Shown: positions 25,632 to 52,022 of the stretch, one piece after another
How positions within the stretch are numbered: the stretch's first letter is position 1
Layout of the letters: each line of letters starts with the position of its first letter
Assembly (NCBI RefSeq): GCF_036507355.1
Contig: NZ_AP027877.1
DNA: 64,000 nucleotides
Origin: Escherichia coli
Lineage (GTDB): Bacteria > Pseudomonadota > Gammaproteobacteria > Enterobacterales > Enterobacteriaceae
Strand: one strand, 5' to 3'
Notes under the pieces: model-generated
Seen by the model: the letters and a program-made list of their open reading frames with translations, nothing else
What the model was told of the DNA's origin: nothing
Databases searched by the model: none
Program-made: the position numbers and the translations under genes

Positions 25632-25643
25632 ATTTCTTCCCGA

Positions 25644-25730: not shown

Positions 25731-25805
25731 TGGGAAACATCAGAATAATCAAAGCAATAAGCAGTGTCGTGAAACCACCTTCGGGTGGTTTTTTTGTGCA
25801 TGCAA
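25675..25805 (+). repeat. Left direct repeat (attL): 3' half of tRNA-Leu plus downstream terminator
   Basis: About 131 bp repeated with a few mismatches and a 2-bp indel at 51890-52022. Confidence 0.85.
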
Positions 25806-25969
25806 TTCACGCCCTGTGCATATCCTGTGCTCACGGGGTGCAATGAGCTGCAATCTTCAGCCTGGCAATGCCGAATCGAACGTGTCGCTTCCAGCATAGA
25901 GAACCAGGCCGCTTTGCCTGTTTTCCGGTACGCTTCCGGGAAGGGGGCCGCTGAGCAAGCTGTAATGCT

Positions 25970-26709
25970 CTAGCCACCCTGAGTACAAAGTTGCTTAATT
26001 CGTGCAATCACCTCATCTCTGTACTTCTGGTGTCCGCGCATAGCCCTTGGATGGGCAATTCTGAAACAGATTGCATTACCTGTTTTGAACTCCCATAGCT
26101 TCCCCGGAATGACTGCAGAAGTCTCATAGCCGCCCAGCTCAGTAAGCACCTGTTTTATGATGTAGTCTGTTCTCCGGGCTCCAGATGCAAAGATGATGAA
26201 ATCAGGCTCAAGGTGTTTAATTTGTACCGCCAGCAGCTTCAGCGAGGCAATATAACTTCCTGCACTTCATTTTGAGGGCGATTGAGAGGGGTCAGTCCGT
26301 CGTAATCCCACGCCAGTAGATTGGCATACACGATAGCCTGAGGAGGGATATTAAGCTCCCGGGCCAGCCTGAAATGATACTGCGTGAAGCGGCTACGTGA
26401 TTTGAGGTTAGTGGTGCCATAATTTTGTACCGGAAGATGTTTCCTGTAACGATCTACAGCTTCTTCAACCACCTGCCCGATGGTGACGTCAGGTATAAGT
26501 CCCAACACCCGTGATATCGTATTCTTACCATTCAGAGTATTCCAGCCAGCGGTTTCACGTCCAACCAGCATGATTTTTACCGGTGAGTGCCAGTATTCTT
26601 CAAAGGGCACGGGTAAAAAGACGCCTGAGTATTTATCCTCATTCAGGTTAAATGACTGGGCGTCAACTTCCTGCAATATCCGTTTGTACGCGTCTAATAG
26701 CTTTTCCAT
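25970..26709 (-). pseudogene. Uracil-DNA glycosylase-like gene (family-4-like), apparently split by a frameshift near 26239-26260
   Basis: ORF 26239-26709 (...KIMLVGRETAGWN...) continues in another frame to 25970 (...FRIAHPRAMRGHQKYRDEV...), resembling UDG motif A and the C-terminal HPS-type motif B. Confidence 0.45.
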
Positions 26710-26789
26710 TCTTCAATCCTGCCCCGTAATAAAAACACCTTCAGATATATATTATCTCCATGATATCAATCAGATACATGAGGATAATT

Positions 26790-27989
26790 ATGCAAAAATC
26801 CTTCCGGTTTACCAATGCATCCATCAAAGCCCTACCTGCAAATACTGATACCCGCTCTACAGAGCTTGAGGTATCTGATACCGAAGTTATTGGACTCAAG
26901 TGCCTCTCAGGTCGAACAGGCAACAAGCGCTTCCTTCTGCGGTATACATTCCACGGTACCAAAAAAAGTATCAGTATTGGCAGATTTCCTGAAATTGATG
27001 TGGGAACAGCCCGGCAAATAGCCCGTCGTCACAAAGAAGCGATTGCGCTGGGAAATGACCCTAAAGCGGAGCGAGATAACTACCGCGCGATGCCAACACT
27101 TGGTGAGTTTTTCCATCAAACCTATGTTCCTTATATAAAGCGCCATAAAAAGTCATGGGATAAGGATGTTCAGCGTTTCACGCAATACATTGAACCTCGT
27201 CTGGGAAAGATACGTTACTGCGATCTCAGGGCCAGAGAGATACAACAGGTGCTGTTTGACATGCTGGAGGGGCGTATTCACGGGCAGCAATATGCGCCGT
27301 CTACCTGTAACAGAGCCCTTGCTATTCTGAAAACGATGGGGCGTTATGCGTTGCGACAGGATGTGCTGGAAAAGAATGAAGCCGATAAGATCCCTTTGCT
27401 GAAAGAGAATAATCAGCGGACGCGCTTTTTTGATGCTGATGAGATCAGGCGCATTCTTGACGCTGCTACCCAATATCCCAACAAAGCTGCCGGGGGATTG
27501 ATAGCCATGTTGTTGTTAACCGGTACACGCAAATCAGAAATGCTTAATGTCAGGCATGAACATATCGACCGGGCCAATCGTACTCTGTTCATTCCTTATA
27601 CAAAAAATGGTCGCAGTCGGACGGTATATCTAAGCGATGCCGCATTATCGATTATTGATGCTATCCCACGAGTTGGCAGTAATCCGTATCTGTTCGCCAT
27701 TAAGGATAATGGAAAACCGATATCGGAACCCCGATGGGCATATGAAAAAATACTGGCACAGTGCGGTATAGACAAGAATGAAGTCTGTTTTCACACCACA
27801 CGTCATTCTGTTGCCTCTTTACTGGTTTCGAGTGGTCAATTCAGCCTGTATGACGTTAAAGCCCAACTGGCGCATGCCAGTATTCAGAGTACAGAACGTT
27901 ACGCGAAATTAACACCGGAACGTATGCGTCAGACAGGGCAGGGAGTGACTGACCTGCTTCTGAATACTGCGGCTACGAAGCAGATGTGA
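26790..27989 (+). CDS. Tyrosine recombinase / integrase (P4-like arm domain)
   Basis: N-terminal arm-binding region, catalytic HTTRHSVAS (HxxR) and TERYAKL (Tyr); start taken at MQKSFRF. Confidence 0.85.
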   Translation: MQKSFRFTNASIKALPANTDTRSTELEVSDTEVIGLKCLSGRTGNKRFLLRYTFHGTKKSISIGRFPEIDVGTARQIARRHKEAIALGNDPKAERDNYRAMPTLGEFFHQTYVPYIKRHKKSWDKDVQRFTQYIEPRLGKIRYCDLRAREIQQVLFDMLEGRIHGQQYAPSTCNRALAILKTMGRYALRQDVLEKNEADKIPLLKENNQRTRFFDADEIRRILDAATQYPNKAAGGLIAMLLLTGTRKSEMLNVRHEHIDRANRTLFIPYTKNGRSRTVYLSDAALSIIDAIPRVGSNPYLFAIKDNGKPISEPRWAYEKILAQCGIDKNEVCFHTTRHSVASLLVSSGQFSLYDVKAQLAHASIQSTERYAKLTPERMRQTGQGVTDLLLNTAATKQM

Positions 27990-28019
27990 CTACTTTTTAG
28001 CAAACTATAAATATGGAGA

Positions 28020-28262
28020 ATGAGGATGCATTTAAAATGCCCACAGTGTGGCAGTTGTAATACATTGATAAGTTCAGCAGGAAAACTGCCATCGATAACC
28101 GATAATAAACGCTCTGGGTATATTAGCCTGGAGTTTTTACCTGAAATACTGAAAGAAATTATTAAGGCTATTAAAAAACTATTTGGATTCCTTGAACAGT
28201 GTGAAAGGAATAATGCTCCAGTGCTTATCTGTATGGACTGTGGGTATTATGAAAGAATTTAA
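28020..28262 (+). CDS. Small zinc-ribbon protein (two CxxC pairs)
   Basis: CPQCGSC ... CMDCGYY in an 80-aa ORF. Confidence 0.5.
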   Translation: MRMHLKCPQCGSCNTLISSAGKLPSITDNKRSGYISLEFLPEILKEIIKAIKKLFGFLEQCERNNAPVLICMDCGYYERI

Positions 28263-28357
28263 ATAGAAAACCAATAACTGTAAATAATAGTTATGCGGAT
28301 GTATAAAAACCCCGATACGTTAATCGTATCGGGTTTTTTGTTTATGAGGATCATTCA

Positions 28358-28729: not shown

Positions 28730-28754
28730 ACACAAGCAAAACCAGGAACACAAA

Positions 28755-29360: not shown

Positions 29361-29795
29361 ATGCAAACCCAATATGCCTTAAAACAGGCAGGATTAACTC
29401 TGCCTGTTACTAAAGAATTTCAGCAGCATATTACTACGCTTCTGGCAAATCGGGTTTTACAAAAAATAACTGAGGCAGTGGTTATTAATTTCCGTGATCC
29501 GGACTACAGTGCAGAATCCGGCGGATTTCATCCGGTTGAAATGCGATTCATCCGTCAGGATAACGAATGGTATTTCGATTATGTCACAGACTTTAGTTAC
29601 ATGGGACGAGTCTACCCGGAACTGGAAAAAGAAATTGATTTTTGCTGGTCGGGGAATTATGTCTTCCATTATCTGGCTGGGGATATTTCACTGGCGGCAG
29701 AGAGGAATGAACTCTGGTCCTTATGGGAGGGTAATTTTATGGATTACCTGTCTATGGGGATTTACCGGGTAACGGTAACTGTGGAAAGTTGTTGA
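29361..29795 (+). CDS. Hypothetical protein (144 aa)
   Basis: ORF with plausible spacing; no family recognised. Confidence 0.5.
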   Translation: MQTQYALKQAGLTLPVTKEFQQHITTLLANRVLQKITEAVVINFRDPDYSAESGGFHPVEMRFIRQDNEWYFDYVTDFSYMGRVYPELEKEIDFCWSGNYVFHYLAGDISLAAERNELWSLWEGNFMDYLSMGIYRVTVTVESC

Positions 29796-30096
29796 CCCGT
29801 TATGAACAGGAAGAAAGCGGGCGGCTTTGTAATCTACTGCATGTGGCGTGCATCACAGCATGGAGATGATGTCTCTTTTTCCTGGCTGTTCGCATAAACA
29901 AGTGCAGACACGGGGGATCTCAGATCCCTCGTGATTTTTGCCCCCTATGGTGCATTCTCCAGTAGCAGGGTGATAACGGTTAATCCATTACCCCAACGAC
30001 AGTATTACACCGGTAATAAATGTTCATGAATACAGTTAGTTATGTGGGTTTTGAGGTGGGCTATGTCATCGTTGACGATAACTGAAGGTTTTACAG

Positions 30097-30324
30097 ATGT
30101 ATAAAACTCGCGGTGAAAGGATCGCAGAAAGGCTGTGCTGGATATTACTTCAACTGTATACCGGTAATACGGTATCGGTTAATGATATATGTCAGCGTTT
30201 CGCGGTCAGTCGCCGAACCGGACAGCGTGATTTGTTGAGAGTTGAAACTGTAACGGAAACTATTTCACCTGGAAGGGTAAGGCTGGCAAATTTGATAAGG
30301 GAACGAGTTAGACGAAATTTTTAA
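30097..30324 (+). CDS. Short HTH protein, possibly a remnant of a DeoR/WYL-type regulator
   Basis: VSVNDICQRFAVSRRTGQRDL resembles the N-terminal HTH of WYL/DeoR regulators; only 75 aa. Confidence 0.35.
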   Translation: MYKTRGERIAERLCWILLQLYTGNTVSVNDICQRFAVSRRTGQRDLLRVETVTETISPGRVRLANLIRERVRRNF

Positions 30325-30546
30325 TCGAATCCATATCAATTCTATAAAATATGAAAATTAACGGGAGTAAATATACACTCCCGTTATAATGCAACCTTTT
30401 TTTAACTACTCAAATGATATTAATTTAGGTGCGACAGTGTTTTTATGACATGTTAAATTCGCAAGATCAATAATATCATGAAACAATTTTAGGTAATGCT
30501 GCCAACTTACTGATTTAGTGTATGATGGTGATTTTAAGGTGCTTGC

Positions 30547-30822
30547 GTGGCTTCCATTTCCATCAGATGTCCTTCCTGCTACGCTACTGAAGGCGTGGTG
30601 CGTAACGGCAAAAGCACTGCCGGACATCAGCGCTATCTCTGCTCTCATTACCGTAAAACATGGCAACTACAGTTCACTTACACCGCCTCTCAGCCCGGTA
30701 CGCACCAGAAAATCATTGATATGGCCATGAATGGCGTCGGATGTCGCGCCAGTGCACGCATTATGGGCGTTGGCCTCAACACGGTTTTACGTCACTTAAA
30801 AAACTCAGGCCGCAGTCGGTAA
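30547..30822 (+). CDS. insA: IS1 InsA
   Basis: [40 protein letters not shown]... Confidence 0.92.
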
Positions 30823-30848
30823 CCTAGCGCATACAACCGGGCGGTGAT

Positions 30849-31244
30849 GTGATTGTCTGCGCTGAAATGGACGAACAGCGGGGTTACGTCGGCGCTAAAT
30901 CACGCCAGCGCTGGTTGTTTTACGCGTATGACAGGATTCGGAGGACGGTTGTGGCGCACGTATTCGGTGAACGCACTCTGGCCACACTGGAGCGTCTTCT
31001 GAGCCTGCTGTCGGCCTTTGAGGTCGTGGTATGGATGACGGATGGCTGGCCGCTGTATGAATCCCGCCTGAAGGGAAAGCTGCACGTTATCAGCAAGCGT
31101 TACACTCAGCGCATTGAGCGACATAATCTGAATCTGAGACAACATCTGGCAAGGCTGGGACGGAAGTCACTGTCGTTCTCAAAATCGGTGGAGCTGCATG
31201 ACAAGGTCATCGGGCATTATCTGAACATAAAACACTATCAGTAA
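30849..31244 (+). CDS. insB: IS1 InsB (transposase part; InsAB' made by frameshift)
   Basis: ...[47 protein letters not shown]... Confidence 0.9.
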
Positions 31245-31435
31245 GTTGGAGTCATTACCTGTTTTTGCTGCATATTTGGCCATGCACTTTTGCCATCAAG
31301 TCAGAGAGACAGGGGCACCGTAAGAGACGAAGGTTGCTGCCTGTGATGAGAGGTTATCAGCAATTACAATGGTCACTAATATTTACATAATGTCGGAGAA
31401 CATCATTTTAGTTGAAATAATATAAAGGCGGTTCT

Positions 31436-31762
31436 ATGTATTTACATATCAGAAAGTATCAACTCGTAAATGCGAGATGGCGTGATATCATTGATTTGAC
31501 GGATTATGAAGAAACAATCAAGCAGGTTGTGAGTACATTATTTGGAAATGATTTTATTGAGGTCAGAGTTGAAACGCGTTGTTTTATTCTGACAGTAAAC
31601 AGTACAAGCAGTAAAATACCACACGGCATACTGGTGAATATGGGGAAAAGGCTGGCGGCGAATCTCCAGAGTATCACCTGTCATGCCATGCGGATCTATC
31701 ATGTAAATGGCCATCCTGACGCGCGGCAGTTATTTCACTGTTTTGATGCCGATTGCCTGTGA
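31436..31762 (+). CDS. Hypothetical protein (108 aa)
   Basis: ORF between IS1 and the convergent polymerase gene; no family recognised. Confidence 0.4.
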   Translation: MYLHIRKYQLVNARWRDIIDLTDYEETIKQVVSTLFGNDFIEVRVETRCFILTVNSTSSKIPHGILVNMGKRLAANLQSITCHAMRIYHVNGHPDARQLFHCFDADCL

Positions 31763-31810
31763 TTAAGCCCCCAACTTCTGTTAAAGGAGTTGGGGGAGAT
31801 TTAACGGTTA

Positions 31811-34474: not shown

Positions 34475-35096
34475 TTACTACAGATTTGAAAATATCGGTT
34501 TTGCGTGATTCATCATCTACATGGATAAAGGAAACGAGTTTCCTGCCTGCTTTAATCAGGATACCGCGTTGCGTCTTTTCCACAGACGGGGTAACGTGTG
34601 CAGATAACAGACAATGTTCATGTAAATGAAGAAACTTTTTTGAGGCGTAGCCGCCATGTAATCGGGCTTGAATGTCAAGATACATATCATCAAGAGAACC
34701 GGGTTCTCCTGATTCACTCAATACCGGATAACCCTTCTTATCAAAGAGGTTAAGGATAGATTTACTATCATGTTCGAACAGGGTAACACCGTAAATGTAT
34801 TTCATTCGAAAGGTGAGGGAATCGGTGGTGTAGACCTCCTCCTGACGATTGAAATTTTTGAGACGCCTGGCTAATTCATTAAAAACAGCACGAGCAGTAG
34901 CCGTGTCCTGCAGGGTGTAGGTATAAAGTACGAAGCCATCTGTGCCGATGAGCTTTACTAAGTTGTCCATAATCGTGATAGCGAGAACTAATGCAAAGGA
35001 TAGATATTTTTCATCGTTGTCTACAGCTGTGTTTGCTGCTTCAGGAAGAATGTTCAGTGCATTATTAGCATTATTTGCTGTGTTCTTAGTAACCAT
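34458..35096 (-). CDS. Hypothetical protein (212 aa) co-transcribed upstream of the polymerase
   Basis: Overlaps the polymerase start by 17 nt and the AlpA-like gene stop by 11 nt. Confidence 0.55.
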   Translation of the reverse strand: MVTKNTANNANNALNILPEAANTAVDNDEKYLSFALVLAITIMDNLVKLIGTDGFVLYTYTLQDTATARAVFNELARRLKNFNRQEEVYTTDSLTFRMKYIYGVTLFEHDSKSILNLFDKKGYPVLSESGEPGSLDDMYLDIQARLHGGYASKKFLHLHEHCLLSAHVTPSVEKTQRGILIKAGRKLVSFIHVDDESRKTDIFKSVVNVIKS

Positions 35097-35286
35097 TTAT
35101 ATCACCTTTAAGTTTGTTTTGACGATGTGCATTTTCCCACTCAACAATATCATCAAGAGAGAATCGTATAGCCCGCCCAATTCTGATGAAGGGCGGGAGT
35201 TTTCCGGGGTTGCGCGATATATCTGACGCAACCGTGGATGCAGAAAGATTAAATCTTTCTGCGAACTGCTTAATGGTTAAATACAT
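35086..35286 (-). CDS. AlpA-family phage-type regulator / excisionase-like HTH protein
   Basis: 66 aa, MYLTIKQFAERFNLSASTVASDISRNPGKLPPFIRIGRAIRFSLDDIVEW, typical AlpA/Xis HTH_17. Confidence 0.75.
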   Translation of the reverse strand: MYLTIKQFAERFNLSASTVASDISRNPGKLPPFIRIGRAIRFSLDDIVEWENAHRQNKLKGDINGY

Positions 35287-35436
35287 AAACCTCCGGTTTC
35301 AGAGAATAAGAAGCCACGCGGATTTAATATCAATCCACATTCTGTGATGACTTAATGCAGGGCCCTGCAGAAGCATGCAATGACAATACCGTCCTTAAAC
35401 GAGTGTTGCATCAATCACGAATCACAGATCATAGGT

Positions 35437-36564: not shown

Positions 36565-36706
36565 CGTATTTCTCCTGTAAATGACACTGGAAAAATACGA
36601 TGTGAGGTTATAGTCTGCCAGTTACAGCTTTCACAGTTCATCAGGTGAAAAATGCTGATTCGGATATAATGGCAACACAATTCCATGTCGCCATTATATT
36701 AAGAAA

Positions 36707-39475: not shown

Positions 39476-39778
39476 CGTTGCCGATTATGGATGATGTCAG
39501 CTTCACACACCAGTACGGGTGATATATGGATCATCATTACCCCAACGGCAGTTTTACACCATGGCTAATATGGATGCTATCTTACTAAGATAATTGGTTT
39601 TTAGCGAGTGACGAGCCAGGTTGTGTCAGTCTGTCTCATGTCGATATTACGGGGATGATGCAAACCTGAATGCTGCGATATTGGCGTGTCAGGGGAGGCA
39701 TCTTACGGTATCATTTACCGCAATTTTTAAGATGCAAAGCCCTGCATCGCTAGCTTTTTCTTCAGACCAGGATGATTC

Positions 39779-42566: not shown

Positions 42567-43246
42567 AACTGACGAAAAGCGGTCCACTGACTGACCGGGA
42601 AATCGACTGGCTGGAAGAAATATTAATGAAGTATGGAATGGATGATTCTGTACTCTGTTTCTCTGAGCTGGATGGATTGCTGACGGCGATTTTATCAGGT
42701 CCAAATATGGTTTCACCCAATATCTGGCTGAGTGCTATTTGGGGAGGAGGCGATTATCATCCGAAATGGTCATCTGAGAGAGAGATGGAGCGTTTTGTCA
42801 GTCTGTGTTTTCAGCATATGAACGATATCGCTGGTTGCCTTTATGACGCCCCTGAACTGTTTGAGCCGATTTTCAATGAGCGTGAGGTAAAGGGGGAAAA
42901 ATATACCATTGTGGAAGAGTGGTGTTTTGGTTATATGAAAGGAAAGTCACTGGATGACTGGTCTGGTCTTCCCGGTGAGTTACGGCCTTCTCTGGAAGTG
43001 ATCGCTCTTCATGGCGTGGAGAAGAATTTTCCTGTACTTGAGAAAATGACCAGAGAGCAGTTTGAGAAAAGTATTTCCCTTATTAAGCCTGCTGCACTGG
43101 CACTTTATCAGTACTGGTTGTCAGTGAGAATGTCAGAGGCATCATCCCGGCCTGTTCCAGTGAAGGGGGCAGAAAACATGCCCGGGCGAAATGACCCGTG
43201 TCCGTGTGGCAGCGGTAAAAAATTTAAGAAGTGCTGTCTGCATTGA
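42563..43246 (+). CDS. YecA-like UPF0149 protein with C-terminal SEC-C metal-binding motif, nested in the hsd operon
   Basis: Aligns along its length with chromosomal YecA at 52141-52806; ends [20 protein letters not shown]; ATGA overlap with the hsdS stop. Confidence 0.8.
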   Translation: MKLTKSGPLTDREIDWLEEILMKYGMDDSVLCFSELDGLLTAILSGPNMVSPNIWLSAIWGGGDYHPKWSSEREMERFVSLCFQHMNDIAGCLYDAPELFEPIFNEREVKGEKYTIVEEWCFGYMKGKSLDDWSGLPGELRPSLEVIALHGVEKNFPVLEKMTREQFEKSISLIKPAALALYQYWLSVRMSEASSRPVPVKGAENMPGRNDPCPCGSGKKFKKCCLH

Positions 43247-43295
43247 TGAATCTTCATGTGACCAGTAGCGAGTAGCGCCAGAAAGAAAAGGATTA

Positions 43296-46200
43296 ATGAT
43301 GAACCAGACGTACACGCCTAAATTCCAGGAAGAATACAGCGCCAAAATTCCGGCACTGACGTTACTGACCAGCCTCGGCTGGACGTTTTTATCTCCGAAA
43401 CAGATTATGGATTACCGGGGCTATAAACAGGATGAGGTGGTGCTGCGTCCGGTTCTGCGTGAAGAGCTGTCGAAGCGTTCCTTTATGGCGGGTGGCAAAA
43501 CCTGCCAGTTATCGGAAAAAGCACTGGATAACCTGATATCACAGGTCTGTTCTCCGGCGCTGAATGAAGGGCTGCTCAAAGCCAATGAACGGATGTATAA
43601 CCATCTGCTCTACGGTATCGCCGTCACGGAGTTTGTCGATGGCAAGAAGGTGAACCCCACCATTGCGCTGATCGACTGGGAACATCCGGAAAGTAACCAG
43701 TTCCATTTTACCGAAGAATTTACGGTATTGCGGTCAGGCGGTGTCGAAACCCGCAGGCCGGATATTGTGTGTTTTGTGAATGGTATCCCGCTGGCCGTCA
43801 TTGAAGCGAAAAGCCCGGCGGGTCACGGCAAGAAAGGGCCAACCATTGACGAAGGGATATCCCAGAGTATCCGCAATCAGCTCAACGACGAAATCCCGCA
43901 GCTGTTTGCTTACAGCCAGATATTACTGTCGATTAACGGGCATGACGGGCGCTACGGTACCTGTCATACACCAATGAAATTCTGGGCGGCATGGCGCGAA
44001 GAAGATATTACTTACGCGCAGATGTATGCGCTGCGCAACCATAAGTTATCGACTGAACAAATTCATGCGTTGTTTGATGATCGTCCTTCAGTCGATCTCA
44101 AATGGTATCAACAGTTAATCGATGGGGGGGAACTGGCAGTCAGCGGGCAGGATAAGCTGCTCATCAGTCTGCTTTCACCGGAACGTCTGCTGGAGATGAC
44201 CCGCTTCTTCACCCTGTTTGATAAAAAAACCGGAAAAATTGTTGCCCGCTATCAGCAGGTGTTCGGTATTAAAAGACTGCTGGAACGCATCAGTACCCGC
44301 AGACCAGACGGGGGCAGGGAAGGTGGGGTGATCTGGCATACCACGGGGTCAGGTAAATCTTACACCATGGTATTCCTCAGCAAGGCGCTGATTCTTCATG
44401 ACAGCCTGAAGCAGTGTCGTATTGTGGTGGTGACGGACCGCGTGGACCTTGAAGGGCAGCTCAGCGGCACTTTTGTCTCTGGTGGCGAACTGGCAGGGAA
44501 GGATGATAAGGCCAAAGCGATGGCAACCTCAGGTCAGAAGCTGGCACAGCAGATTGGCTCTGGTAAAGAACGTATAATCTTTACCCTTATCCAGAAATTT
44601 AACTCAGCGACAAAATTGCCTGAATGCGTCAACACCAGCCCCGACATCATCGTTCTGATTGATGAAGGACACCGTAGCCAGGGTGGTGAGAACCATGTGC
44701 GAATGAAACTGGCACTGCCGAACGCCGCCTTTGTGGCATTTACTGGTACGCCATTGCTAAAAGAAGATAAGACCACCAATAAATTCGGGCCGATTGTCCA
44801 CGCTTATACCATGCAGCGAGCGGTAGAAGATAAAGCCGTTACACCTTTGCTGTATGAAGAACGTATTCCCGACCTTGAGGTTAACGATCGGGCAATAGAT
44901 GCCTGGTTTGATCGTATTACCGATGGGTTAAGCGAAGCGCAAAAAGCCGACCTTAAGCGTAAATATGCCCGTAAAGGTGAGGTTTATAGTGCAGATGATC
45001 GCATCCGTCTGATCGCACTCGATATCGCCACGCACTTCTCGAAGAATATTGATGAGGGGCTGAAAGGCCAGCTTGCCTGCGACAGCAAGATTTCCGCCAT
45101 CAAATATAAAAAGTATCTTGATGAAGCCGGGTTGTTTGAGTCAGCAGTAGTTATCAGCCCGCCGGATACCCGGGAAGGGAATACCGAAGTGGATGAAAGC
45201 AAACTGCCGGAAGTGACGAAATGGTGGAAGGATAATGTCGGCACGCAGGATGAGTCTGTGTATACCCGTAATATCATCAGTCGTTTCGATACCGATGAGA
45301 AGCTCAAATTGCTGATAGTCGTTGATAAACTGCTCACCGGGTTTGATGAGCCGAAGAATACCGTGCTGTATATCGACAAGCCGCTTAAGTCCCACAACCT
45401 TATCCAGGCGATTGCGCGGGTGAACCGACTGCATCCACTAAAAAAGTTCGGTCTGCTGATTGATTATCGCGGTATTCTGGCTGAGCTGGACACGACTATC
45501 GGCAAATATCAGGACCTCGCCTCCCGAACTCAGGGCGGATACGATATCAAAGATATTGACGGGCTGTACAGCGCCATGAGCTCTGAATACAAGCGCCTGC
45601 CGCATCTGTATAACCAGCTGTGGGCCATATTTGCCGGTGTTAAAAACAAAAATGATACTGAGCAGTTACGTGCGGTACTGGTGCCTAAAATGGAAGAACG
45701 TGACGGAGAGATGGTCGATATCCATCAGAAAACCCGTGATGATTTCTTCGAGGCGTTAACGGCCTTTGCCGGATGCCTGAAAGTGGCACTGCAGTCCGCT
45801 ACCTTCTTCACCGACAAGAGCTTTACGGAACAAGACCGAAATCTCTATAAAGAAACCGTAAAACAGATGTCCAGCCTGCGCCAGTGGGCGATGCAGGTAA
45901 GTGGAGAGCAGGTCAATTATGACGACTACGCTGAGCAGGTGAAAAAACTGCTGGATAAGCATGTCACCGGCGTTGAGGTTCGTGAACCGGATGGCGTGTA
46001 TGAAGTCGGTAAAATGGGCAAGAGCGAAAAGCCCGAAGAGTGGGACAACAATAAAACCCGCAATGAAACCGACATCATTAAAACCCGCGTGACGAAGATG
46101 ATTGAGCAGGAATTGCGTGATGACCCGTATGCTCAGGAGGCATTTTCAAAACTCCTGCGTATGGCTATCGAAGAGGCTGAAAAACTGTTTGACCATCCGC

Positions 46201-46583
46201 TGAAACAGTACCTTTTGTTCCGTGAATTTGAAGAACAGGTTGAAGCCCGTAAGCTCAGCGATATCCCGGATGCACTGGCGGTAAACAAGCATGCTCAGGC
46301 GTATTACGGTGTATTTAAAAAAGAGCTACCTGAGGTTTTTGCGGTAAACGACGTTCAGGTGCAGGATAAGTGGACCAAGCTGGCTTTTGAAGTGGACAAC
46401 ATTATCGTCAAAGCGGTGGCAGAAAACTCCCTGAACCCCCAGGACATTGAGAAAGTCGTTAAGACAAGTCTGCTACCACTGCTGTTTACGGCCTGCCGGG
46501 AAATTGGTGCCGGAATGAATCAGGTTAACCGTATTGTGGAAACCATCATCCAGATACTGCGCGTTGGTTTGATGAAATCATGA
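43296..46583 (+). CDS. hsdR: Type I restriction endonuclease subunit HsdR
   Basis: 1095 aa; Walker A TGSGKSYT and DEAH-like box DEGHRS. Confidence 0.92.
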   Translation: MMNQTYTPKFQEEYSAKIPALTLLTSLGWTFLSPKQIMDYRGYKQDEVVLRPVLREELSKRSFMAGGKTCQLSEKALDNLISQVCSPALNEGLLKANERMYNHLLYGIAVTEFVDGKKVNPTIALIDWEHPESNQFHFTEEFTVLRSGGVETRRPDIVCFVNGIPLAVIEAKSPAGHGKKGPTIDEGISQSIRNQLNDEIPQLFAYSQILLSINGHDGRYGTCHTPMKFWAAWREEDITYAQMYALRNHKLSTEQIHALFDDRPSVDLKWYQQLIDGGELAVSGQDKLLISLLSPERLLEMTRFFTLFDKKTGKIVARYQQVFGIKRLLERISTRRPDGGREGGVIWHTTGSGKSYTMVFLSKALILHDSLKQCRIVVVTDRVDLEGQLSGTFVSGGELAGKDDKAKAMATSGQKLAQQIGSGKERIIFTLIQKFNSATKLPECVNTSPDIIVLIDEGHRSQGGENHVRMKLALPNAAFVAFTGTPLLKEDKTTNKFGPIVHAYTMQRAVEDKAVTPLLYEERIPDLEVNDRAIDAWFDRITDGLSEAQKADLKRKYARKGEVYSADDRIRLIALDIATHFSKNIDEGLKGQLACDSKISAIKYKKYLDEAGLFESAVVISPPDTREGNTEVDESKLPEVTKWWKDNVGTQDESVYTRNIISRFDTDEKLKLLIVVDKLLTGFDEPKNTVLYIDKPLKSHNLIQAIARVNRLHPLKKFGLLIDYRGILAELDTTIGKYQDLASRTQGGYDIKDIDGLYSAMSSEYKRLPHLYNQLWAIFAGVKNKNDTEQLRAVLVPKMEERDGEMVDIHQKTRDDFFEALTAFAGCLKVALQSATFFTDKSFTEQDRNLYKETVKQMSSLRQWAMQVSGEQVNYDDYAEQVKKLLDKHVTGVEVREPDGVYEVGKMGKSEKPEEWDNNKTRNETDIIKTRVTKMIEQELRDDPYAQEAFSKLLRMAIEEAEKLFDHPLKQYLLFREFEEQVEARKLSDIPDALAVNKHAQAYYGVFKKELPEVFAVNDVQVQDKWTKLAFEVDNIIVKAVAENSLNPQDIEKVVKTSLLPLLFTACREIGAGMNQVNRIVETIIQILRVGLMKS

Positions 46584-47335
46584 GTGAAAAAGAATCGCCA
46601 TCAATGAAAGCGTTACGCATTGTCTATGGTGATGATGTCATCACCGTACAGTGTGTTCCGCGTCAGGTCGTAAAGGGCAGGGTGCTCATCAAGGTTTATC
46701 CGGACTGCCGGGTTGTGGCCTCTGTACCGCCTGAAACACCGGAGCACGAGGTATTGTCTGCGCTGAAAAAAAGAGGGCGCTGGATATACCAGCAACTGCG
46801 TGATTTCAGGGAGCAACAGACACACATTGTTCCGCGTCAGTATGTCAGCGGAGAAAGCCATTATTATCTCGGTAAGCAATATCAGTTGAAAGTGACAGAA
46901 GACGCTACTGTGCCGCAACGAGTGAAAATGTTGCGTGGGCGTCTGGAAGTGACTGTCAGACACAAATCGGCAGAAAAGATTAAAGCCTTGCTGGCTGAAT
47001 GGTATCGGGAACGTGCCAGAGATGTTTTTCAGCGCAGGCTTGATTTACTGATTCCGCAGACCCTTTGGGTCAGTGAGCGTCCTCCGATACGTCTGCGGGC
47101 GATGCAAACGCAATGGGGCAACTGTTCAGCAAAAGGCTGTCTGACCCTGAATCCATGGCTGGTTAAGGCATCCTCAGAATGTATCGATTATGTTTTGCTA
47201 CATGAGTTATGCCATGTGGCTGAGCACAACCACAGCGAGGAGTTTTACCGTCTGATGGGGCAGGTTATGCCTGGGTGGGAAAAGGTCAAGAAACGACTGG
47301 ATGGGATGGCTGGGATGTTGTTGGCTGATATGTAA
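46580..47335 (+). CDS. HExxH zinc metallopeptidase (M48/YgjP-like) after hsdR
   Basis: HELCH motif; ATGA overlap with the hsdR stop. Confidence 0.7.
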   Translation: MSEKESPSMKALRIVYGDDVITVQCVPRQVVKGRVLIKVYPDCRVVASVPPETPEHEVLSALKKRGRWIYQQLRDFREQQTHIVPRQYVSGESHYYLGKQYQLKVTEDATVPQRVKMLRGRLEVTVRHKSAEKIKALLAEWYRERARDVFQRRLDLLIPQTLWVSERPPIRLRAMQTQWGNCSAKGCLTLNPWLVKASSECIDYVLLHELCHVAEHNHSEEFYRLMGQVMPGWEKVKKRLDGMAGMLLADM

Positions 47336-47393: not shown

Positions 47394-49232
47394 ATGAGTA
47401 AGTTAGATAATAAAATTGAAGCACGCCATCGTAATTTGTTTGATGTTCTAAATGCGCAAAAATATACCGTTGATTACTTTCAGCGCGAGTATAGCTGGGG
47501 TGAGAAACATATTGAAGAGTTGGTTACAGACTTAACATCTGCGTTTCTCAATGAATACACCGTCGGTGATTCTCGGGAGCAGGGTGAAAACTACAATAAT
47601 TATTACTTAGGACCATTTGTTGTGAGTAGTAAAGATGGGAAACGGAGTATTATTGATGGTCAGCAACGACTGACTTCATTAACTTTATTTCTAATTTACC
47701 TCCATAACCTTCAGAAAGAACTTAAATATGAAGAGAAAATAGAATCAATGATTTTCTCCGAGTTACGTGGCAGCAAATCATTCAATATAGTAGTTGAAGA
47801 CAGAATACCTTGCATGGAAGCATTGTTTAATTTTGGTAGCTATAGTTTAGTTGATGGGGATGATGAGTCAACCCATAACATGGTGGAGAGATATCAGAAT
47901 ATCACAGATGCTTTTCCTGATGAATTAAAAGGTCAGGCTTTTCCTTTTTTTATCGACTGGCTTAAGTATAACGTTATTATGGTTGAGATAGTTGCCTATT
48001 CAGATGAAAACGCATATACCATCTTTGAGACTATGAATGACCGAGGATTAAATCTTACTCCGTCCGAAATGCTTAAAGGTTTTTTACTTTCACGCTTTCA
48101 TCAGGGAGATAAACGCCAAAAGGTAAATGAACTCTGGAAAAAAGCGATGATGGATTTAAAAAACTATGATAAAGATGAAGACCAACGTTTTTTCCAGTCA
48201 TGGTTGCGTGCTCAATATGCTGATACAATACGCCCGGGTAAAGCTGGTTCAAAAAATGAAGACTTTGAAAAAATAGGTACGCGTTTTCATAGCTGGGTTA
48301 GAGATAATCTTCAGGCGGTGGGATTGGACCCAGATAATGGTGAGACATTCGAACGATTTATACAAAAAAACTTTTTGTTTTATTTGAATGCCTATACACA
48401 AATACTGAATGCTGAGAGAGCATTAACGCACCAACTGGAATATGTATTTTATATCCACCATTGGGGTATTGCACCTACTTTAAGTTTCCCTTTGATGTTG
48501 GCTCCATTAAATGTAGGTGACAGTCCTGATGCTGTGATAGCCAAAATAAACCTGGTGGCGCGCTATATTGAAACATTTGTTGTTCGTCGTTCTGTTAATT
48601 TCCGAAAATTCTCTGCCAGTTCTATTCGTTACACAATGTACAGTCTTGTTAAAGAAATTCGTGGTAAAAGTATTGAAGAATTAAAAGATTTGTTATCTAA
48701 GAAGTTATCCGAAATGCCAGATACTTTTGCAGGAATGGAAGAGTTTCGTCTCCATGGTCAAAACTATCGTTTTGTGAAGTTTTTGCTTTCTCGTATAACT
48801 GCGTGGGTTGAGCAGCAAGCCGGAATGAGTACAACCTTCATTACATATTATCAGCCAGAACACGGTAAGCCATTTGAAGTCGAGCATATTTGGGCCGATA
48901 AATATGAACGTTACTCTGATGAGTTTGAACAAGAGCACGAATTTAACAATTACAGAAATCGCTTAGGTGATTTGGTTTTATTACCTAGAGGCTCAAACCA
49001 GTCATATGGTGATTTGTGTTACGATCAAAAGCAACCTCATTACATCAAAGAGAATCTCCTGGCTAAATCGTTATGCCCATTGGCATATATGAATAACCCT
49101 AATTTCAATCAGTTGAGAAATGTATTCGGATTGCCTTTCAAACCACATGATTCATTTAAAAAACAAGATGTCGATGAACGACAGTCTTTGTATAAAATAA
49201 TTTGTGAGAATATTTGGGACCATAATTTATAG
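47394..49232 (+). CDS. GmrSD-like DUF262/DUF1524 nuclease (type IV restriction-like)
   Basis: N-terminal DGQQR hallmark (IIDGQQRLTSL) and C-terminal His-Me-finger-like FEVEHIWAD; GGGAG RBS before ATG 47394. Confidence 0.7.
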   Translation: MSKLDNKIEARHRNLFDVLNAQKYTVDYFQREYSWGEKHIEELVTDLTSAFLNEYTVGDSREQGENYNNYYLGPFVVSSKDGKRSIIDGQQRLTSLTLFLIYLHNLQKELKYEEKIESMIFSELRGSKSFNIVVEDRIPCMEALFNFGSYSLVDGDDESTHNMVERYQNITDAFPDELKGQAFPFFIDWLKYNVIMVEIVAYSDENAYTIFETMNDRGLNLTPSEMLKGFLLSRFHQGDKRQKVNELWKKAMMDLKNYDKDEDQRFFQSWLRAQYADTIRPGKAGSKNEDFEKIGTRFHSWVRDNLQAVGLDPDNGETFERFIQKNFLFYLNAYTQILNAERALTHQLEYVFYIHHWGIAPTLSFPLMLAPLNVGDSPDAVIAKINLVARYIETFVVRRSVNFRKFSASSIRYTMYSLVKEIRGKSIEELKDLLSKKLSEMPDTFAGMEEFRLHGQNYRFVKFLLSRITAWVEQQAGMSTTFITYYQPEHGKPFEVEHIWADKYERYSDEFEQEHEFNNYRNRLGDLVLLPRGSNQSYGDLCYDQKQPHYIKENLLAKSLCPLAYMNNPNFNQLRNVFGLPFKPHDSFKKQDVDERQSLYKIICENIWDHNL

Positions 49233-49290
49233 CAAAGTTAGGGTGTTAATTAATCTGTAATGGCATCATGATTTTTAAAAGGAGGTTGAA

Positions 49291-50418
49291 TTGCGTTCTG
49301 AAACGTTTTTTGTCAAATTTATTGAACAACTGAAAGGTATTTCGGTTGAGGATGATGTTGAATTCAATTTTTTTGAATTGGGTGGTTCCGGATATCTCGA
49401 AAATCCAACTACGGATTTGATGGCTTTGTTTATGGGAGCCCAGAAAATGGTGCCGCCATGGTTGCTCAAAGCATTGCTATGTTGCCTGGATGATTCCCTC
49501 GATGTTGATGAAATTGATTTCACTTCTCTGGAGCTAATGAGAGAGGCCCGAACAGAAGATGGGAAATATATTGATATTCTTATCAGACATGATGAATTCA
49601 TTATAGGTATTGAGCATAAAGTTCTGGCTGATACATATAATCCTTTTCCCAGCTATGTAAGTCTCATTGATAGTTACGGCGGCAACAATCAAAAACTATT
49701 TCGCTGTATATTAAAGCCTGACGGTAACAGCGCTAAAGGCGTAGACGGTTGGCAACTGATCAATTATTCACTGCTGCTGGAAACCGCCATTCGACGTCTG
49801 GGGTTGGAGATGATGAATCAAGAGTTCAGCAAGTGGACTGTTTTTTATCAGGAGTTTTTAAGTCATCTTAAAAAATTGAGTGAGGTTAGTATGGATAAGG
49901 TATCTGATAAAAATGTGGAGTTTGTCACTGAAAATTTCTCAGCTTTGATAAAATCGGTTCAACTGCTGGAAATGTACCAAAATGCTATCACCGAGGAAGC
50001 TAAATCGGTTGTCTCAGAGGTATTGCCTGATATTCATATTGCAACAGGTATTAATAACTGGAAGGGTTACTATAAAGCAATTCATCTGATGCCGGGATGC
50101 TGGGGGCAAGGTAAAACAGGAATTACGTTAGTTTATCGCCCTTCAGAGGATGGACGAGATGAAGCTGAGTTCTACGTATATGGATGGATACATTCAGATG
50201 ATTACCCTGAAGTTAATGCACTAAAAGAAGAAATAAGAGTTGCTTTAAGTGCTGGAGATTTCATTCCAACAGCTAGCCCTGAGGACTATGAAGTATCAAT
50301 TACTGGGAAGGGGAAAGTGCTTGAACTGAGTTTTTGGGGGAATACGAGAAGCAAAAAAGATGCACTGGTTCTTCTTAAGGATATGACTAAGTGGATGGAC
50401 TCAAAAATAAGAACATAA
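49291..50418 (+). CDS. PD-(D/E)xK-type nuclease-fold protein (TTG start)
   Basis: Candidate catalytic core ...GKYIDILIRHDEFIIGIEHKV (D...ExK); AAGGAGG RBS. Confidence 0.55.
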   Translation: MRSETFFVKFIEQLKGISVEDDVEFNFFELGGSGYLENPTTDLMALFMGAQKMVPPWLLKALLCCLDDSLDVDEIDFTSLELMREARTEDGKYIDILIRHDEFIIGIEHKVLADTYNPFPSYVSLIDSYGGNNQKLFRCILKPDGNSAKGVDGWQLINYSLLLETAIRRLGLEMMNQEFSKWTVFYQEFLSHLKKLSEVSMDKVSDKNVEFVTENFSALIKSVQLLEMYQNAITEEAKSVVSEVLPDIHIATGINNWKGYYKAIHLMPGCWGQGKTGITLVYRPSEDGRDEAEFYVYGWIHSDDYPEVNALKEEIRVALSAGDFIPTASPEDYEVSITGKGKVLELSFWGNTRSKKDALVLLKDMTKWMDSKIRT

Positions 50419-50522
50419 AGTAATATGACTGAGTGATGACGATCTTTTTTAAATTGTGGATTATTAGGCTGGTAATTGAAGCGCCGAATAGACAGATATT
50501 GGAATAAAAGGAGAATATTCAA

Positions 50523-51704
50523 ATGATTTATCAGTGTGATACTTGCAGTAGAACGACTTTTGAGGTTAATTGTCCCTGGTGTAGTGGAGTTTCGCCTGTA
50601 AAAACGTCTGCATGGGGTTCAGCATCATCGACCGCACAAGCAATAGGCATACAACGTATGACACCATTGAATCCATCGTTTTATCCCGAATTTCAGTATC
50701 GTTCAAAGGGTGTTCTAAAAGATCTATTTGGGAAAAAGAAAGAGCAAACTCAGCTTAATCAATTGCTTGAAAATGTTCTCAAAAAATACTCCAGTTTAAA
50801 AGATCCATATTTTACTAACTTCATTTACACTTCCAGATTCTCACATAATAATAAATCGGAAGCAGATTACTCAACAGATAATGGTACATACTCCGAATTA
50901 CAACTTTTCCGTGAGGTGTTGGTCAGAAAAGGGTTCAATGAGCTTGAGCAGTTACCTGAGCTATTAGATAAATTACTCCTTACCACGTCATTTAACGCTC
51001 TTTATTATGGTTTCGCTAAGGAAGTTAAACGGCATATTAAATCCACACTTACTGAATCCTTGAAGTCATGGATTGAGGAAGCGGGTACCACTTTTAGGGC
51101 AGATCTTTCATTGTTTCTATTCTATATATGGAGCAATAAAATAGAGTTCTCATCAGTAGAGTTCAATGAAAAAGCGGAGGCTACGCCTGGTGTTCCTTTA
51201 GTTTCATTTGATGAAGTTAAAAAATACTTAGCTGTGTGCGAACATATTTATTTTGATATTCTGGTTGATAGATTAGCTACACGGCTCGAACATTTTAACC
51301 CTAACAAATTCGTCACCATGTATTTAGTTGATGCAATGGACGGTTTCCAGTTTGAAGATTTCCTTGTGGAAGTATTCCAGACTATGGGCTATGACGTCAA
51401 AGAAACCAAGAGAACGCAAGATCAGGGGGCAGATCTCTTCGTCACTCGATTTGGTAAGGATATGGTTATTCAGGCGAAAAATTATTCTGGTTCTGTAGGT
51501 AACTCGGCGGTGCAGCAGGTGATCTCTGCTAAAACATTCTATGGTTGTGATGAGGCGATGGTTGTGACTAATTCCTACTTCACACGCTCTGCCAAAGAAT
51601 TAGCTGAATCAGCCTTGGTACGTTTGATCGACAGGGATGAACTGCAAAAGTATCTGGATGATTACAATCAGAAGATAATTGAAGATTTCCAGTCAAACTC
51701 GTAA
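50523..51704 (+). CDS. Zinc-ribbon protein with C-terminal Mrr-like restriction endonuclease domain
   Basis: N-terminal CDTCS...CPWC; C-terminal ...GADLFVTRFGKDMVIQAKNYSGSVG... resembles the Mrr catalytic domain. Confidence 0.6.
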   Translation: MIYQCDTCSRTTFEVNCPWCSGVSPVKTSAWGSASSTAQAIGIQRMTPLNPSFYPEFQYRSKGVLKDLFGKKKEQTQLNQLLENVLKKYSSLKDPYFTNFIYTSRFSHNNKSEADYSTDNGTYSELQLFREVLVRKGFNELEQLPELLDKLLLTTSFNALYYGFAKEVKRHIKSTLTESLKSWIEEAGTTFRADLSLFLFYIWSNKIEFSSVEFNEKAEATPGVPLVSFDEVKKYLAVCEHIYFDILVDRLATRLEHFNPNKFVTMYLVDAMDGFQFEDFLVEVFQTMGYDVKETKRTQDQGADLFVTRFGKDMVIQAKNYSGSVGNSAVQQVISAKTFYGCDEAMVVTNSYFTRSAKELAESALVRLIDRDELQKYLDDYNQKIIEDFQSNS

Positions 51705-51889
51705 CTTTGCAGTCATATAGATATAGCAAAGGACAGGTAGGCCTCCGTGAGAGGGGGACTTACCTGTGCAGATTCTGTGCTCAAAGTTATCCAAGTCTAT
51801 CTATTTACTGCCAATTACAGTAAAATGAGTAAGCAATTACAGCAAAGTTTCGCAATGCACTGCTATGTAACTCATTGATCCTGCGTAGA

Positions 51890-52022
51890 ATTTAAAATCC
51901 CTCGGCGTTCGCGCTGTGCGGGTTCAAGTCCCGCTCCGGGTACCATGGGAAAGATAAGAATAAAATCAAAGCAATAAGCAGTGTCGTGAAACCACCTTCG
52001 GGTGGTTTTTTTGTGCCTGCAA
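51890..52022 (+). repeat. Right direct repeat (attR): copy of tRNA-Leu 3' half plus terminator
   Basis: Matches 25675-25805 with a few mismatches and a 2-bp indel; begins inside the anticodon arm, so no complete tRNA here. Confidence 0.85.

Follow-up and report, generated by a model that had tools for sequence, protein, structure and literature searches.

Organization of the leuZ-yecA interval

In the window (the whole stretch of 64,000 nucleotides of Escherichia coli DNA that was analyzed), the interval between leuZ and yecA holds a 26.2-kb insert (26,215-26,217 bp of inserted DNA), the features of which are listed in Table 1. The insert follows an array of tRNA-Gly, tRNA-Cys, and tRNA-Leu(taa) genes at 25428-25730 (ARAGORN); a search of positions 25000-52500 against Rfam at gathering thresholds gave nothing beyond these three tRNAs. 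It is bounded by direct repeats of 131 and 133 bp, which are 97% identical (three substitutions and a 2-nt indel). The first 56 nt of each repeat correspond to the 3' half of leuZ, and both repeats include the leuZ terminator hairpin. Direct repeats of this length in 27 kb cannot have arisen by chance. The repeat on the leuZ side has the variants shared by pipolins and that on the yecA side is of the K-12 type, which is the signature of recombination between attP and attB.

The measured lengths agree with the initial annotation, in which an element of about 26 kb with imperfect repeats of about 130 bp was described between leuZ and yecA; the range given there, 25731-52022, spans the inserted DNA but also takes in part of one repeat. 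The GC content of the island is 0.437 (43.7%), compared with 0.501 and 0.484 for the flanking DNA. This contrast is real but moderate, and the "markedly more AT-rich" composition that had been noted applies only to 36.7-39.5 kb and 47.4-51.7 kb (GC 0.36-0.38).

The literature places the pipolins of E. coli and Enterobacterales at the 3' end of tRNA-Leu in the pgsA-yecA interval. The insert occupies this site, between pgsA and yecA, and leuZ and yecA are adjacent (the site is empty) in 3,780 of 5,426 complete E. coli genomes, including K-12; the interval is thus not filled in all E. coli.

Table 1. Features of the leuZ-yecA interval, with positions in the window
Feature	Position	Strand	Evidence or remark
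tRNA-Leu(UAA) leuZ, integration target	25644..25730	+	ARAGORN, Rfam; intact, K-12-identical (alignment)
tRNA-proximal att repeat, 131 bp	25675..25805	.	"attR" in pipolin literature; element-type variants downstream of tRNA
UDG-like gene, pseudogene	25970..26709	-	Frameshifted near 26248; tblastn against intact 247-aa allele of strain 0H15
Tyrosine recombinase adjoining tRNA (IntSXT position)	26790..27989	+	Arm-DNA-bind_3 and Phage_integrase; R, HxxR, Y motifs
80-aa ORF with cysteine pairs	28020..28262	+	phrog_32727
Conserved pipolin core orphan, 123 aa	28358..28729	+	Equivalent position in E. tarda pipolin
Conserved pipolin core orphan, 177 aa	28755..29288	+	Equivalent position in E. tarda pipolin
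DUF2787 protein, pipolin core marker	29361..29795	+	RefSeq annotation, synteny; PMC11551731
Conserved box copy 1 (CATTACCCCAACGACAGTATTACACC)	29986..30011	+	85 nt upstream of 75-aa HTH gene
75-aa HTH protein, DeoR-like N-terminal HTH	30097..30324	+	Conserved in pipolins of other genera
DUF726 gene, 3' remnant (about 27 codons)	30406..30491	-	Cut by IS1
IS1, 768 bp, insA/insB with frameshift	30492..31259	+	No target-site duplication
108-aa orphan beside piPolB	31436..31762	+	Position conserved
piPolB, primer-independent family-B DNA polymerase, 866 aa	31811..34411	-	All catalytic motifs intact
212-aa orphan upstream of piPolB	34458..35096	-	No family match
Excisionase-like HTH (HTH_17/AlpA type), 66 aa	35086..35286	-	phrog_66; HTH_17 on E. 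tarda homologue
Second tyrosine recombinase (IntP2 position, beside excisionase)	35437..36564	-	Catalytic motifs present
376-aa orphan	36707..37837	-	Helical; no homology or fold match
410-aa orphan	38240..39472	-	Always beside 376-aa orphan
Conserved box copy 2 (CATTACCCCAACGGCAGTTTTACACC)	39535..39560	+	218 nt upstream of hsdM
Type I restriction-modification (R-M) operon	39779..47335	+	Annotation, PADLOC
hsdM	39779-41302	+	
hsdS	41292-42566	+	
YecA-like SEC-C protein (PDC-S12)	42563-43246	+	
hsdR	43296-46583	+	
YgjP/M48 peptidase	46580-47335	+	
GmrSD-like DUF262 nuclease	47394..49232	+	GmrSD_N and GmrSD_C; nearest PADLOC class HEC-06
PD-(D/E)XK nuclease family protein	49291..50418	+	PADLOC candidate class PDC-S26
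Mrr-like restriction endonuclease	50523..51704	+	C-terminal Mrr_cat
yecA-proximal att repeat, 133 bp	51890..52022	.	Partial leuZ copy, then native K-12-type sequence

The DNA polymerase

The polymerase gene is enclosed by the att-like terminal repeats. The signature of piPolB was defined by the D-x-E of ExoI, the PolA Asp, the PolC motif changed to SxTTDG, and KH-X8-KTRG replacing KxY. The 866-aa protein contains the full set (D59/E61, D368, S571-V-T-T-D-G576, and K613-H614-X8-K623-T-R-G626), and the residue numbers are the same as for the residues mutated in PMC5695915, so that the assignment of a family-B polymerase with the piPolB signature was confirmed. The protein is identical at 857 of 866 positions (99.0%) to the polymerase of the described pipolin of ETEC H10407, and 68% identical to the enzyme of a syntenic pipolin of Edwardsiella tarda. 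By contrast, the generic profiles barely recognized it (Pfam DNA_pol_B_2, E = 0.0094), and neither an NCBIfam match nor a PDB sequence match was obtained; PHROG DNA polymerase families matched at 7e-07 and 5e-05. Its identity rests on the motifs, the published numbering, and the near-identity to published enzymes.

A length of 887 aa had been given for this protein, which we correct to 866 aa. The 21 additional codons run into the upstream ORF, include a terminator-like hairpin, and lack a Shine-Dalgarno sequence, and GGAG stands 6 nt before the ATG at 34411, the start also used by RefSeq. The 887-aa start was rejected on these grounds and because only the 866-aa start reproduces the published residue numbering. 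The polymerase gene was found in 295 of the 5,426 complete genomes, on chromosomes only, and the whole island in 177 genomes.

Recombinases and the core module

The two tyrosine recombinases are intact and lie at the positions expected for IntSXT and IntP2; their family assignment is by position. The excisionase-like HTH protein scored 24.1 bits against TIGR01764, under the cut-off of 28.8 bits. The DUF2787 protein is annotated as such in a near-identical RefSeq copy, and PF10980 is recorded on its homologues. The element has two modules, a core next to the tRNA and a distal cargo module. Read from the tRNA side, the core module comprises the UDG-like gene, the integrase at the IntSXT position, orphans, DUF2787, the HTH gene, piPolB, the excisionase-like HTH gene, the integrase at the IntP2 position, and two further orphans. 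The two tyrosine recombinases, excisionase-like HTH, family-B polymerase, IS1, and restriction cargo of the initial annotation were all found.

Decay of the core

The UDG-like gene, a type-4 UDG in the pipolin literature (PMC7385651), had also been noted at this place; it is present but is a frameshifted pseudogene, and RefSeq marks it "frameshifted". Comparison with H10407 and 0H15 indicated that IS1 stands in for about 1.9 kb of core DNA with the DUF726 gene and an HTH-WYL-WCX regulator. The WYL regulator, a core gene of pipolins, is consequently absent here; as present in H10407/0H15, it is 72% identical to an HTH_DeoR-WYL-WCX protein of E. tarda. An identical IS1 junction was found in 94 genomes, many of 4.55-4.86 Mb, and the copy belongs to a common sublineage marked by the UDG-like frameshift and the IS1-associated deletion of the DUF726 and WYL genes. 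The absence of the WYL gene is a secondary loss in this sublineage and no argument against pipolin membership. With the WYL gene missing and the UDG-like gene broken, regulation or mobility of this copy may have suffered. The genes for piPolB, the excisionase-like protein, and the two integrases are still intact, as are the two att repeats.

Defense cargo

The distal module is made up of nucleic-acid defense genes, namely the type I R-M operon (including PDC-S12 and the YgjP peptidase), the GmrSD-like nuclease, PDC-S26, and the Mrr-like endonuclease. An IS1-flanked version of the hsd module, 97.6% identical to the one here, is located on the conjugative Klebsiella plasmid pKP048, which fits the published model of cargo exchange. 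Much of the cargo had been called uncharacterized; most of it belongs to named defense classes already reported for pipolins, and the truly unknown genes do exist but are orphans on the core side.

The conserved boxes and the orphan gene pair

A box of 24-26 nt (TTACCCCAACGRYAGTWTTACACC) occurs in two direct copies and is strictly conserved in pipolins of several genera. It is invariant while both flanks diverge, and the two-box arrangement was seen in at least six genera.

The 376-aa and 410-aa orphans gave only AbiJ_NTD4 (E = 0.013) in searches against PADLOC, NCBIfam, PHROGs, and Pfam. Their homologues fall into no more than 13 and 18 clusters, and every organism named by a source belongs to Enterobacterales. 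The AlphaFold models had pLDDT values of 40 (unusable) and 62, and Foldseek searches of PDB and AFDB50 returned uncharacterized family members only. A hydropathy scan (Kyte-Doolittle) gave no predicted transmembrane segments.

The box and the orphan pair go unmentioned in the pipolin papers cited here (PMC5695915, PMC7385651, and PMC11551731), and both the box pair and the conserved gene pair may be new. As a tentative suggestion, which is more speculative than probable, the box could be an undescribed cis-regulatory or recombination signal through which the 75-aa HTH protein or the WYL protein would couple expression of the defense cargo or of the orphan pair to the state of the element. To our knowledge, no such transcriptional control circuit has been reported for type I R-M on a mobile island.

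Identity of the element and alternative explanations

The gene order corresponds to the published core and cargo of enterobacterial pipolins, and we conclude, with a probability of roughly 0.93, that the island is an E. coli pipolin of the canonical kind, one of the integrative mobile elements that are defined by piPolB, as the initial annotation had it. The sequence shows that the element entered the 3' half of leuZ by site-specific recombination of a tyrosine recombinase, with the crossover within 25675-25737; the tRNA was rebuilt on insertion, and a segment of about 131 bp, made up of the tRNA 3' half and the terminator, was duplicated. From the literature, one integrase or both, acting with the excisionase, may excise the element as a circle, which piPolB would replicate. 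Intercellular transfer probably relies on helper elements, as the element has neither conjugation nor virion genes.

Part of this scheme could have come to an end in the present copy, if a pipolin by descent is now an immobile, vertically inherited island, kept only for its restriction and defense cargo after the loss of WYL, DUF726, and UDG. The frameshift in the UDG-like gene and the IS1 without target duplication, replacing 1.9 kb including the WYL regulator, would suit such a history; the shared IS1 junction in 94 genomes is compatible with clonal inheritance, and in strain I4 the island persists at leuZ without piPolB, IntP2, or the excisionase. However, piPolB, the integrases, the excisionase-like gene, and the att repeats are intact here with all catalytic residues present, and the incongruence of pipolin and host phylogenies in the literature indicates ongoing transfer. 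We regard immobility as a real possibility, though the less likely outcome. The role of the polymerase may also be questioned. In vitro, according to the pipolin literature, piPolB primes and extends DNA unaided, but the pipolin papers cited here hold no demonstration of in vivo excision, a circular form, or piPolB-driven episomal replication, and "self-replicating", as the element had been called, is therefore a label and not a demonstrated property. Expression of piPolB raised the survival of E. coli after mitomycin C and UV (PMC5695915), its neighbor genes are of DNA-repair or defense type, and in a related island (L008) the place of piPolB is taken by a DUF927 protein; piPolB might accordingly be a DNA-damage-tolerance or defense enzyme for the host or the island, in an island driven purely by integrases. 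This is unlikely in view of the conservation of piPolB, the most conserved gene of these elements, the strong under-representation of islands missing only piPolB (PMC11551731), and the plasmid pipolins known from the literature in other taxa.

A nested structure would make the 26-nt boxes the att sites of an inner module of about 10 kb (the 75-aa HTH gene, piPolB, the excisionase gene, IntP2, and orphans) within an outer IntSXT island. The direct boxes bracket exactly the IntP2-excisionase-piPolB segment, an arrangement that recurs in at least six genera, and secondary acquisition of IntP2 was suggested in PMC11551731. Yet the box lacks the dyad symmetry typical of tyrosine-recombinase core sites, and copy 2 is carried along with the hsd module to plasmids in which the inner module is absent. 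Furthermore, no single-box DUF2787-hsdM junction was found in the 5,426 E. coli genomes searched; the sole genome with DUF2787 and hsdM adjacent, that of the piPolB-less strain I4, has retained the two boxes and goes back to a deletion at a 6-bp microhomology. Boxes as att sites of a nested IntP2 element are thus unsupported, and we consider such a composite very improbable. Integration at a tRNA, the integrases, the excisionase-like gene, and the matches of several core ORFs to PHROG families of unknown function could also belong to a prophage remnant, a phage satellite, or an integrative conjugative or mobilizable element. However, neither the ORFs nor the RefSeq annotation of the 99.4% identical copy included capsid, terminase, lysis, or primase-helicase genes, and no relaxase, type IV secretion, oriT, or coupling protein was found in these sources or in the NCBIfam hits. 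A phage collection matched the island at IS1 only. With their hallmark genes absent, these readings were rejected.

The canonical pipolin reading is correct but ordinary, since pipolins at leuZ, piPolB, the att repeats, and the defense cargo have already been described in detail. This copy is of value as an annotated example, with clean boundaries, of a decayed sublineage that is common. As a natural mutant, it could help to show whether excision or maintenance requires WYL, DUF726, and UDG, and the box pair and orphan pair are small, concrete leads on pipolin regulation.

Comparison with known systems

E. coli pipolins have been described by Redrejo-Rodriguez 2017 (PMC5695915), Flament-Simon 2020 (PMC7385651), and Mateo-Caceres & Redrejo-Rodriguez 2024 (PMC11551731), the described set being the reference element of strain 3-373-03_S1_C2, the ETEC H10407 pipolin, and the LREC/GenBank set. 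The element here shares with them the tRNA-Leu site between pgsA and yecA, the att repeats, the piPolB numbering, the core order (UDG, integrase, orphans, and DUF2787, then piPolB, excisionase, and the second integrase), and the cargo classes type I R-M, PDC-S12, PDC-S26, and HEC-06-like. It differs from the H10407 pipolin in the frameshifted UDG-like gene, in IS1 in place of DUF726 and the WYL regulator, and in having no adjacent P2-like prophage and hence no third att repeat. The nearest RefSeq relative, RM14721 (99.4% identical), carries a distal SIR2 gene that is missing here.

The E. tarda pipolin (GCA_048082445.1, L007/L011) has an identical gene order, from pgsA and the integrase through Mrr, and likewise contains the orphan pair, the 212/220-aa ORF, the 108-aa ORF, and both boxes. 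It differs in the sequence of piPolB (68% identical), in an intact WYL regulator, in a GTPase-like gene at the position of the E. coli DUF726, and in lacking IS1 and the GmrSD gene.

Defense islands integrated at tRNA genes (for example GMT islands and P. aeruginosa cDHS; PMC11551731) likewise combine a small maintenance core with variable defense cargo and lack conjugation and virion genes, but they have no piPolB and their core genes are others. Casposons and polintons are also integrative and encode their own family-B polymerase; however, they have a protein-primed PolB, Cas1 or retrovirus-like integrases, and terminal inverted repeats, whereas the element here has piPolB, tyrosine recombinases, and direct repeats derived from a tRNA gene.

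Insertion site and att repeats

The initial annotation had placed an insert bounded by direct repeats between leuZ and yecA, which are adjacent in K-12, and this was borne out. Three tRNA genes, tRNA-Gly, tRNA-Cys and tRNA-Leu(taa), were located with ARAGORN, in agreement with Rfam (see the table). Two adjoining families from the repeat finder proved to be one repeat, with copies of 131 bp on the leuZ side and 133 bp on the yecA side; three substitutions and one 2-nt indel distinguish them. The repeat begins with the 3' half of leuZ (56 nt), and its remaining part contains the leuZ terminator hairpin; leuZ was restored intact at insertion. The inserted DNA amounts to 26,215-26,217 bp. For the empty site, a query was made in which the leuZ and yecA sides are fused around a single repeat copy, and it aligned without interruption in 3,780 of the 5,426 complete E. 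coli genomes searched, one of which is K-12 MG1655. The DNA had also been described as markedly more AT-rich than its surroundings. Its GC content between the repeats (43.7%) is indeed below that of the flanks (50.1% and 48.4%); the strong deviation (36-38% GC) is found in two stretches, 36.7-39.5 kb and 47.4-51.7 kb.

Both repeats were aligned with the empty site of K-12. On the yecA side the repeat was the same as K-12 throughout, even past the tRNA in the part where the copies diverge, and the leuZ-side repeat had other bases there (CATCAGAAT--AATC, and GTGCATGCAA). These variants are all common to RM14721, the nearest RefSeq relative, and the first set is also present in the pipolin-bearing strain 0H15. 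The two copies share 63 identical nt (25675-25737). As judged from these alignments, the pattern is the footprint of site-specific recombination between attP and attB, with the crossover placed inside the 63-nt segment.

Features of the leuZ-yecA region, in order from leuZ (positions in the window)
Feature	Position	Strand	Remarks
tRNA-Gly, tRNA-Cys, tRNA-Leu(taa)	25428-25730		
att repeat, leuZ side	25675-25805		
UDG-like gene	25970-26709	minus	frameshift near 26248
First tyrosine recombinase			Arm-DNA-bind_3 and Phage_integrase domains
Three small ORFs			no known function
DUF2787 gene			
Box copy 1	29986-30011		
HTH gene			75 aa
IS1	30492-31259		
ORF			108 aa
piPolB gene	ATG at 34411		866 aa
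Hairpin	34428-34451	minus	terminator-like, GC-rich with T-run; between the 212-aa ORF stop and the piPolB start
Orphan			212 aa
Excisionase-like HTH			66 aa
Second tyrosine recombinase			27% identical to the first
Orphan	36707-37837	minus	376 aa
Orphan	38240-39472	minus	410 aa
Box copy 2	39535-39560		
Type I R-M operon	39779-47335		hsdM-hsdS-[YecA-like SEC-C protein = PDC-S12]-hsdR-[YgjP/M48 peptidase]
GmrSD-type nuclease	47394-49232		nearest class HEC-06
PDC-S26	49291-50418		PD-(D/E)XK nuclease
Mrr-like nuclease	50523-51704		
att repeat, yecA side	51890-52022		

Polymerase

The family-B polymerase with a piPolB signature was recognized correctly, but its length of 887 aa was not: the true start is the ATG in the table, with GGAG 6 nt upstream, and RefSeq annotates the 866-aa form. 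The longer reading was rejected, as its 21-codon extension overlaps the preceding ORF and holds the terminator-like hairpin (34451-34428). This hairpin could attenuate piPolB expression, or separate it from that of the upstream excisionase and 212-aa genes. In the 866-aa numbering, D59-x-E61, D368, S-x-T-T-D-G (571-576) and K613-H614-X8-K623-T-R-G coincide exactly with the positions that were mutated or singled out when the E. coli 3-373-03_S1_C2 enzyme was characterised biochemically (PMC5695915). Two features define piPolB against other family-B polymerases, namely KTRG in place of KxY and the change of the first Asp of the PolC motif to Thr (PMC5695915), and both are present here. Among generic libraries, Pfam DNA_pol_B_2 (E=0.009) and two PHROG polymerase families were matched, and no match was obtained in NCBIfam or among PDB sequences; such weak matches are expected because the group is divergent.

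Core genes and IS1

The core order of the island is that of the published enterobacterial pipolin core, in which IntSXT lies near the tRNA, DUF2787 and WYL genes are present, and IntP2 and then the excisionase stand beside piPolB (PMC11551731); by position, the two recombinases here are candidate IntSXT and IntP2 members. The two tyrosine recombinases and the AlpA-like HTH of the initial annotation were recovered, the latter as the excisionase-like gene; R, HxxR and Y motifs are kept in both recombinases. The UDG-like gene is also there, although not intact: RefSeq marks it 'frameshifted' in two near-identical islands, and it is intact in strain 0H15. Both of its reading frames are only ~79% identical (protein) to the 0H15 allele; besides being a pseudogene, it is therefore a divergent allele.

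The IS1, likewise found as annotated, has no target-site duplication (flanks, ACAATTTTA and TGTTTTTGC). It stands in for ~1.9 kb found in strain 0H15 and in the literature-named pipolin of ETEC H10407, comprising a DUF726 gene save its last ~27 codons and an entire 300-aa HTH regulator, which is 72% identical to an Edwardsiella tarda protein with HTH_DeoR, WYL and WCX domains. Thus, the published core marker WYL is absent here because the replaced segment held this regulator. The identical IS1 junction occurs in 94 complete E. coli genomes, and it therefore marks a common WYL-less pipolin sublineage and no private event.

The 376-aa and 410-aa orphans (36% GC), between the second integrase and hsdM, are adjacent in all examined E. 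coli-lineage pipolins and in E. tarda. Both families are small (13 and 18 clusters among 5.8 billion proteins), and no profile or family match was obtained with PADLOC, NCBIfam, PHROGs or Pfam. The AlphaFold model of the 410-aa protein was poor (pLDDT 40), and that of the 376-aa protein was moderate (pLDDT 62, rising to about 90 in a helical core); Foldseek returned solely uncharacterised relatives, with no fold match. In a pipolin-like island on a Logan contig (ERR1891491_286, 3829-12293), DUF2787 and two integrases occur together with a homologue of the 410-aa orphan at 45% identity; piPolB is absent from this island, and a DUF927 protein is in the place of the polymerase.

Defence cargo

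Cargo was assigned with PADLOC and Pfam, and the restriction/defence genes noted at the outset could each be given a class (see the table). Type I R-M, PDC-S12, PDC-S26 and HEC-06 are named as enterobacterial pipolin cargo in a 2024 survey, which also describes exchange of these systems with plasmids (PMC11551731). In accord with this, the whole hsd module (window 39484-47334) recurs at 97.6% identity on pKP048, a conjugative plasmid of Klebsiella pneumoniae (4763-12612 of the plasmid locus). There, IS1 flanks the module at each end, an arrangement suggestive of its capture and exchange by way of IS1. In the phage collection, IS1 was the sole match within the island. The YecA-like UPF0149/SEC-C gene of the hsd operon (42563-43246) is 57% identical to chromosomal yecA (52141-52806), which lies 9 kb away, just outside the island.

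Conserved 26-nt box

The island has a 26-nt direct repeat (24-26 nt, TTACCCCAACGRYAGTWTTACACC), of which 24/26 positions agree and none was expected by chance. Copy 1 precedes the 75-aa HTH gene by 85 nt. Copy 2 precedes hsdM by 218 nt, in the intergenic space that this gene shares with the divergently oriented 410-aa orphan. The repeat is without mention in the cited pipolin literature. A scan with TTACCCCAACGNNNNNWTTACAC, in which one genome per species was used, gave 18 matches. Fifteen were in Enterobacterales (Enterobacter, Citrobacter, Buttiauxella, Intestinirhabdus, Atlantibacter and Franconibacter), all beside pipolin core genes or the hsd module, always at one of the same two positions and usually as a same-strand pair. 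One match, in a Nanosynbacter MAG contig, likewise adjoins hsdM (99.6% identical); the last two (Pontibacter and an Oligoflexales MAG) adjoin neither. The 23-nt core is invariant or 1-2 bases off even where the flanks have diverged beyond recognition. Both copies are kept in E. tarda, and copy 2 moves with the hsd module, being present on pKP048.

The boxes were considered as att sites of a nested IntP2 element. Strain I4 bears on this: in no other of the E. coli genomes searched are DUF2787 and hsdM neighbours. Its island at leuZ (NZ_CP195978.1; 9487-9771 of the I4 locus) is a derivative of the same island that arose through a deletion of window 30129-39412 (9.3 kb) with 6-bp microhomology. 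The deletion spans the HTH gene to the 410-aa orphan, so that piPolB is lost along with the excisionase-like gene and second integrase. Both boxes are retained, with the breakpoints at distances of 117 and 122 nt from them; site-specific excision at the boxes is therefore unsupported. The box may serve as an operator or as a signal for recombination, and a putative site bound by the small HTH protein, or else by the WYL regulator, is more likely than an att site.

Mobility and comparison with known pipolins

Taken together, the sequence shows a site-specific insertion into leuZ, with intact polymerase, recombinases and att sites and with plasmid-shared defence cargo. Priming and extension of DNA by this type of polymerase have been proven in vitro (PMC5695915). 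Following the literature, the element would excise as a circle, the circle would be replicated by piPolB, and transfer between cells would be helper-dependent; the cited pipolin literature contains no in vivo demonstration of these three steps. The main rival explanation is that this decayed sublineage has become a fixed defence island. All pipolin-defining features that can be tested in silico are present save the WYL core gene, the absence of which is a secondary loss.

The whole island (at least 80% coverage) was found in 177 complete E. coli genomes, and the polymerase gene alone (at least 95% nucleotide identity) in 295, chromosomal in all. The nearest whole-island relative is RM14721 (99.4% identity). 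In the backbone, ~3.4 kb of lower-GC DNA (window ~3514-6885), between an integrase-fragment pseudogene beside fliE and yedK, is absent from RM14721. The flagellin gene gave a partial-length match to RM14721 (79% over ~490 nt, window 13769-14259), and the two backbones therefore differ in flagellar antigen type. In RM14721, an extra SIR2-family gene (30818-32317 of its locus) separates the Mrr-like gene from the att repeat; this gene is absent here (window 51704-51740), and the distal cargo end thus varies. The polymerase is identical at 857/866 positions to that of the H10407 pipolin and 68% identical to that of the fully syntenic E. tarda pipolin. The identification as a pipolin is correct and already known; the element type, site, polymerase and cargo classes have been published (PMC5695915, PMC7385651, PMC9710591, PMC11551731), and RefSeq contains near-identical copies.
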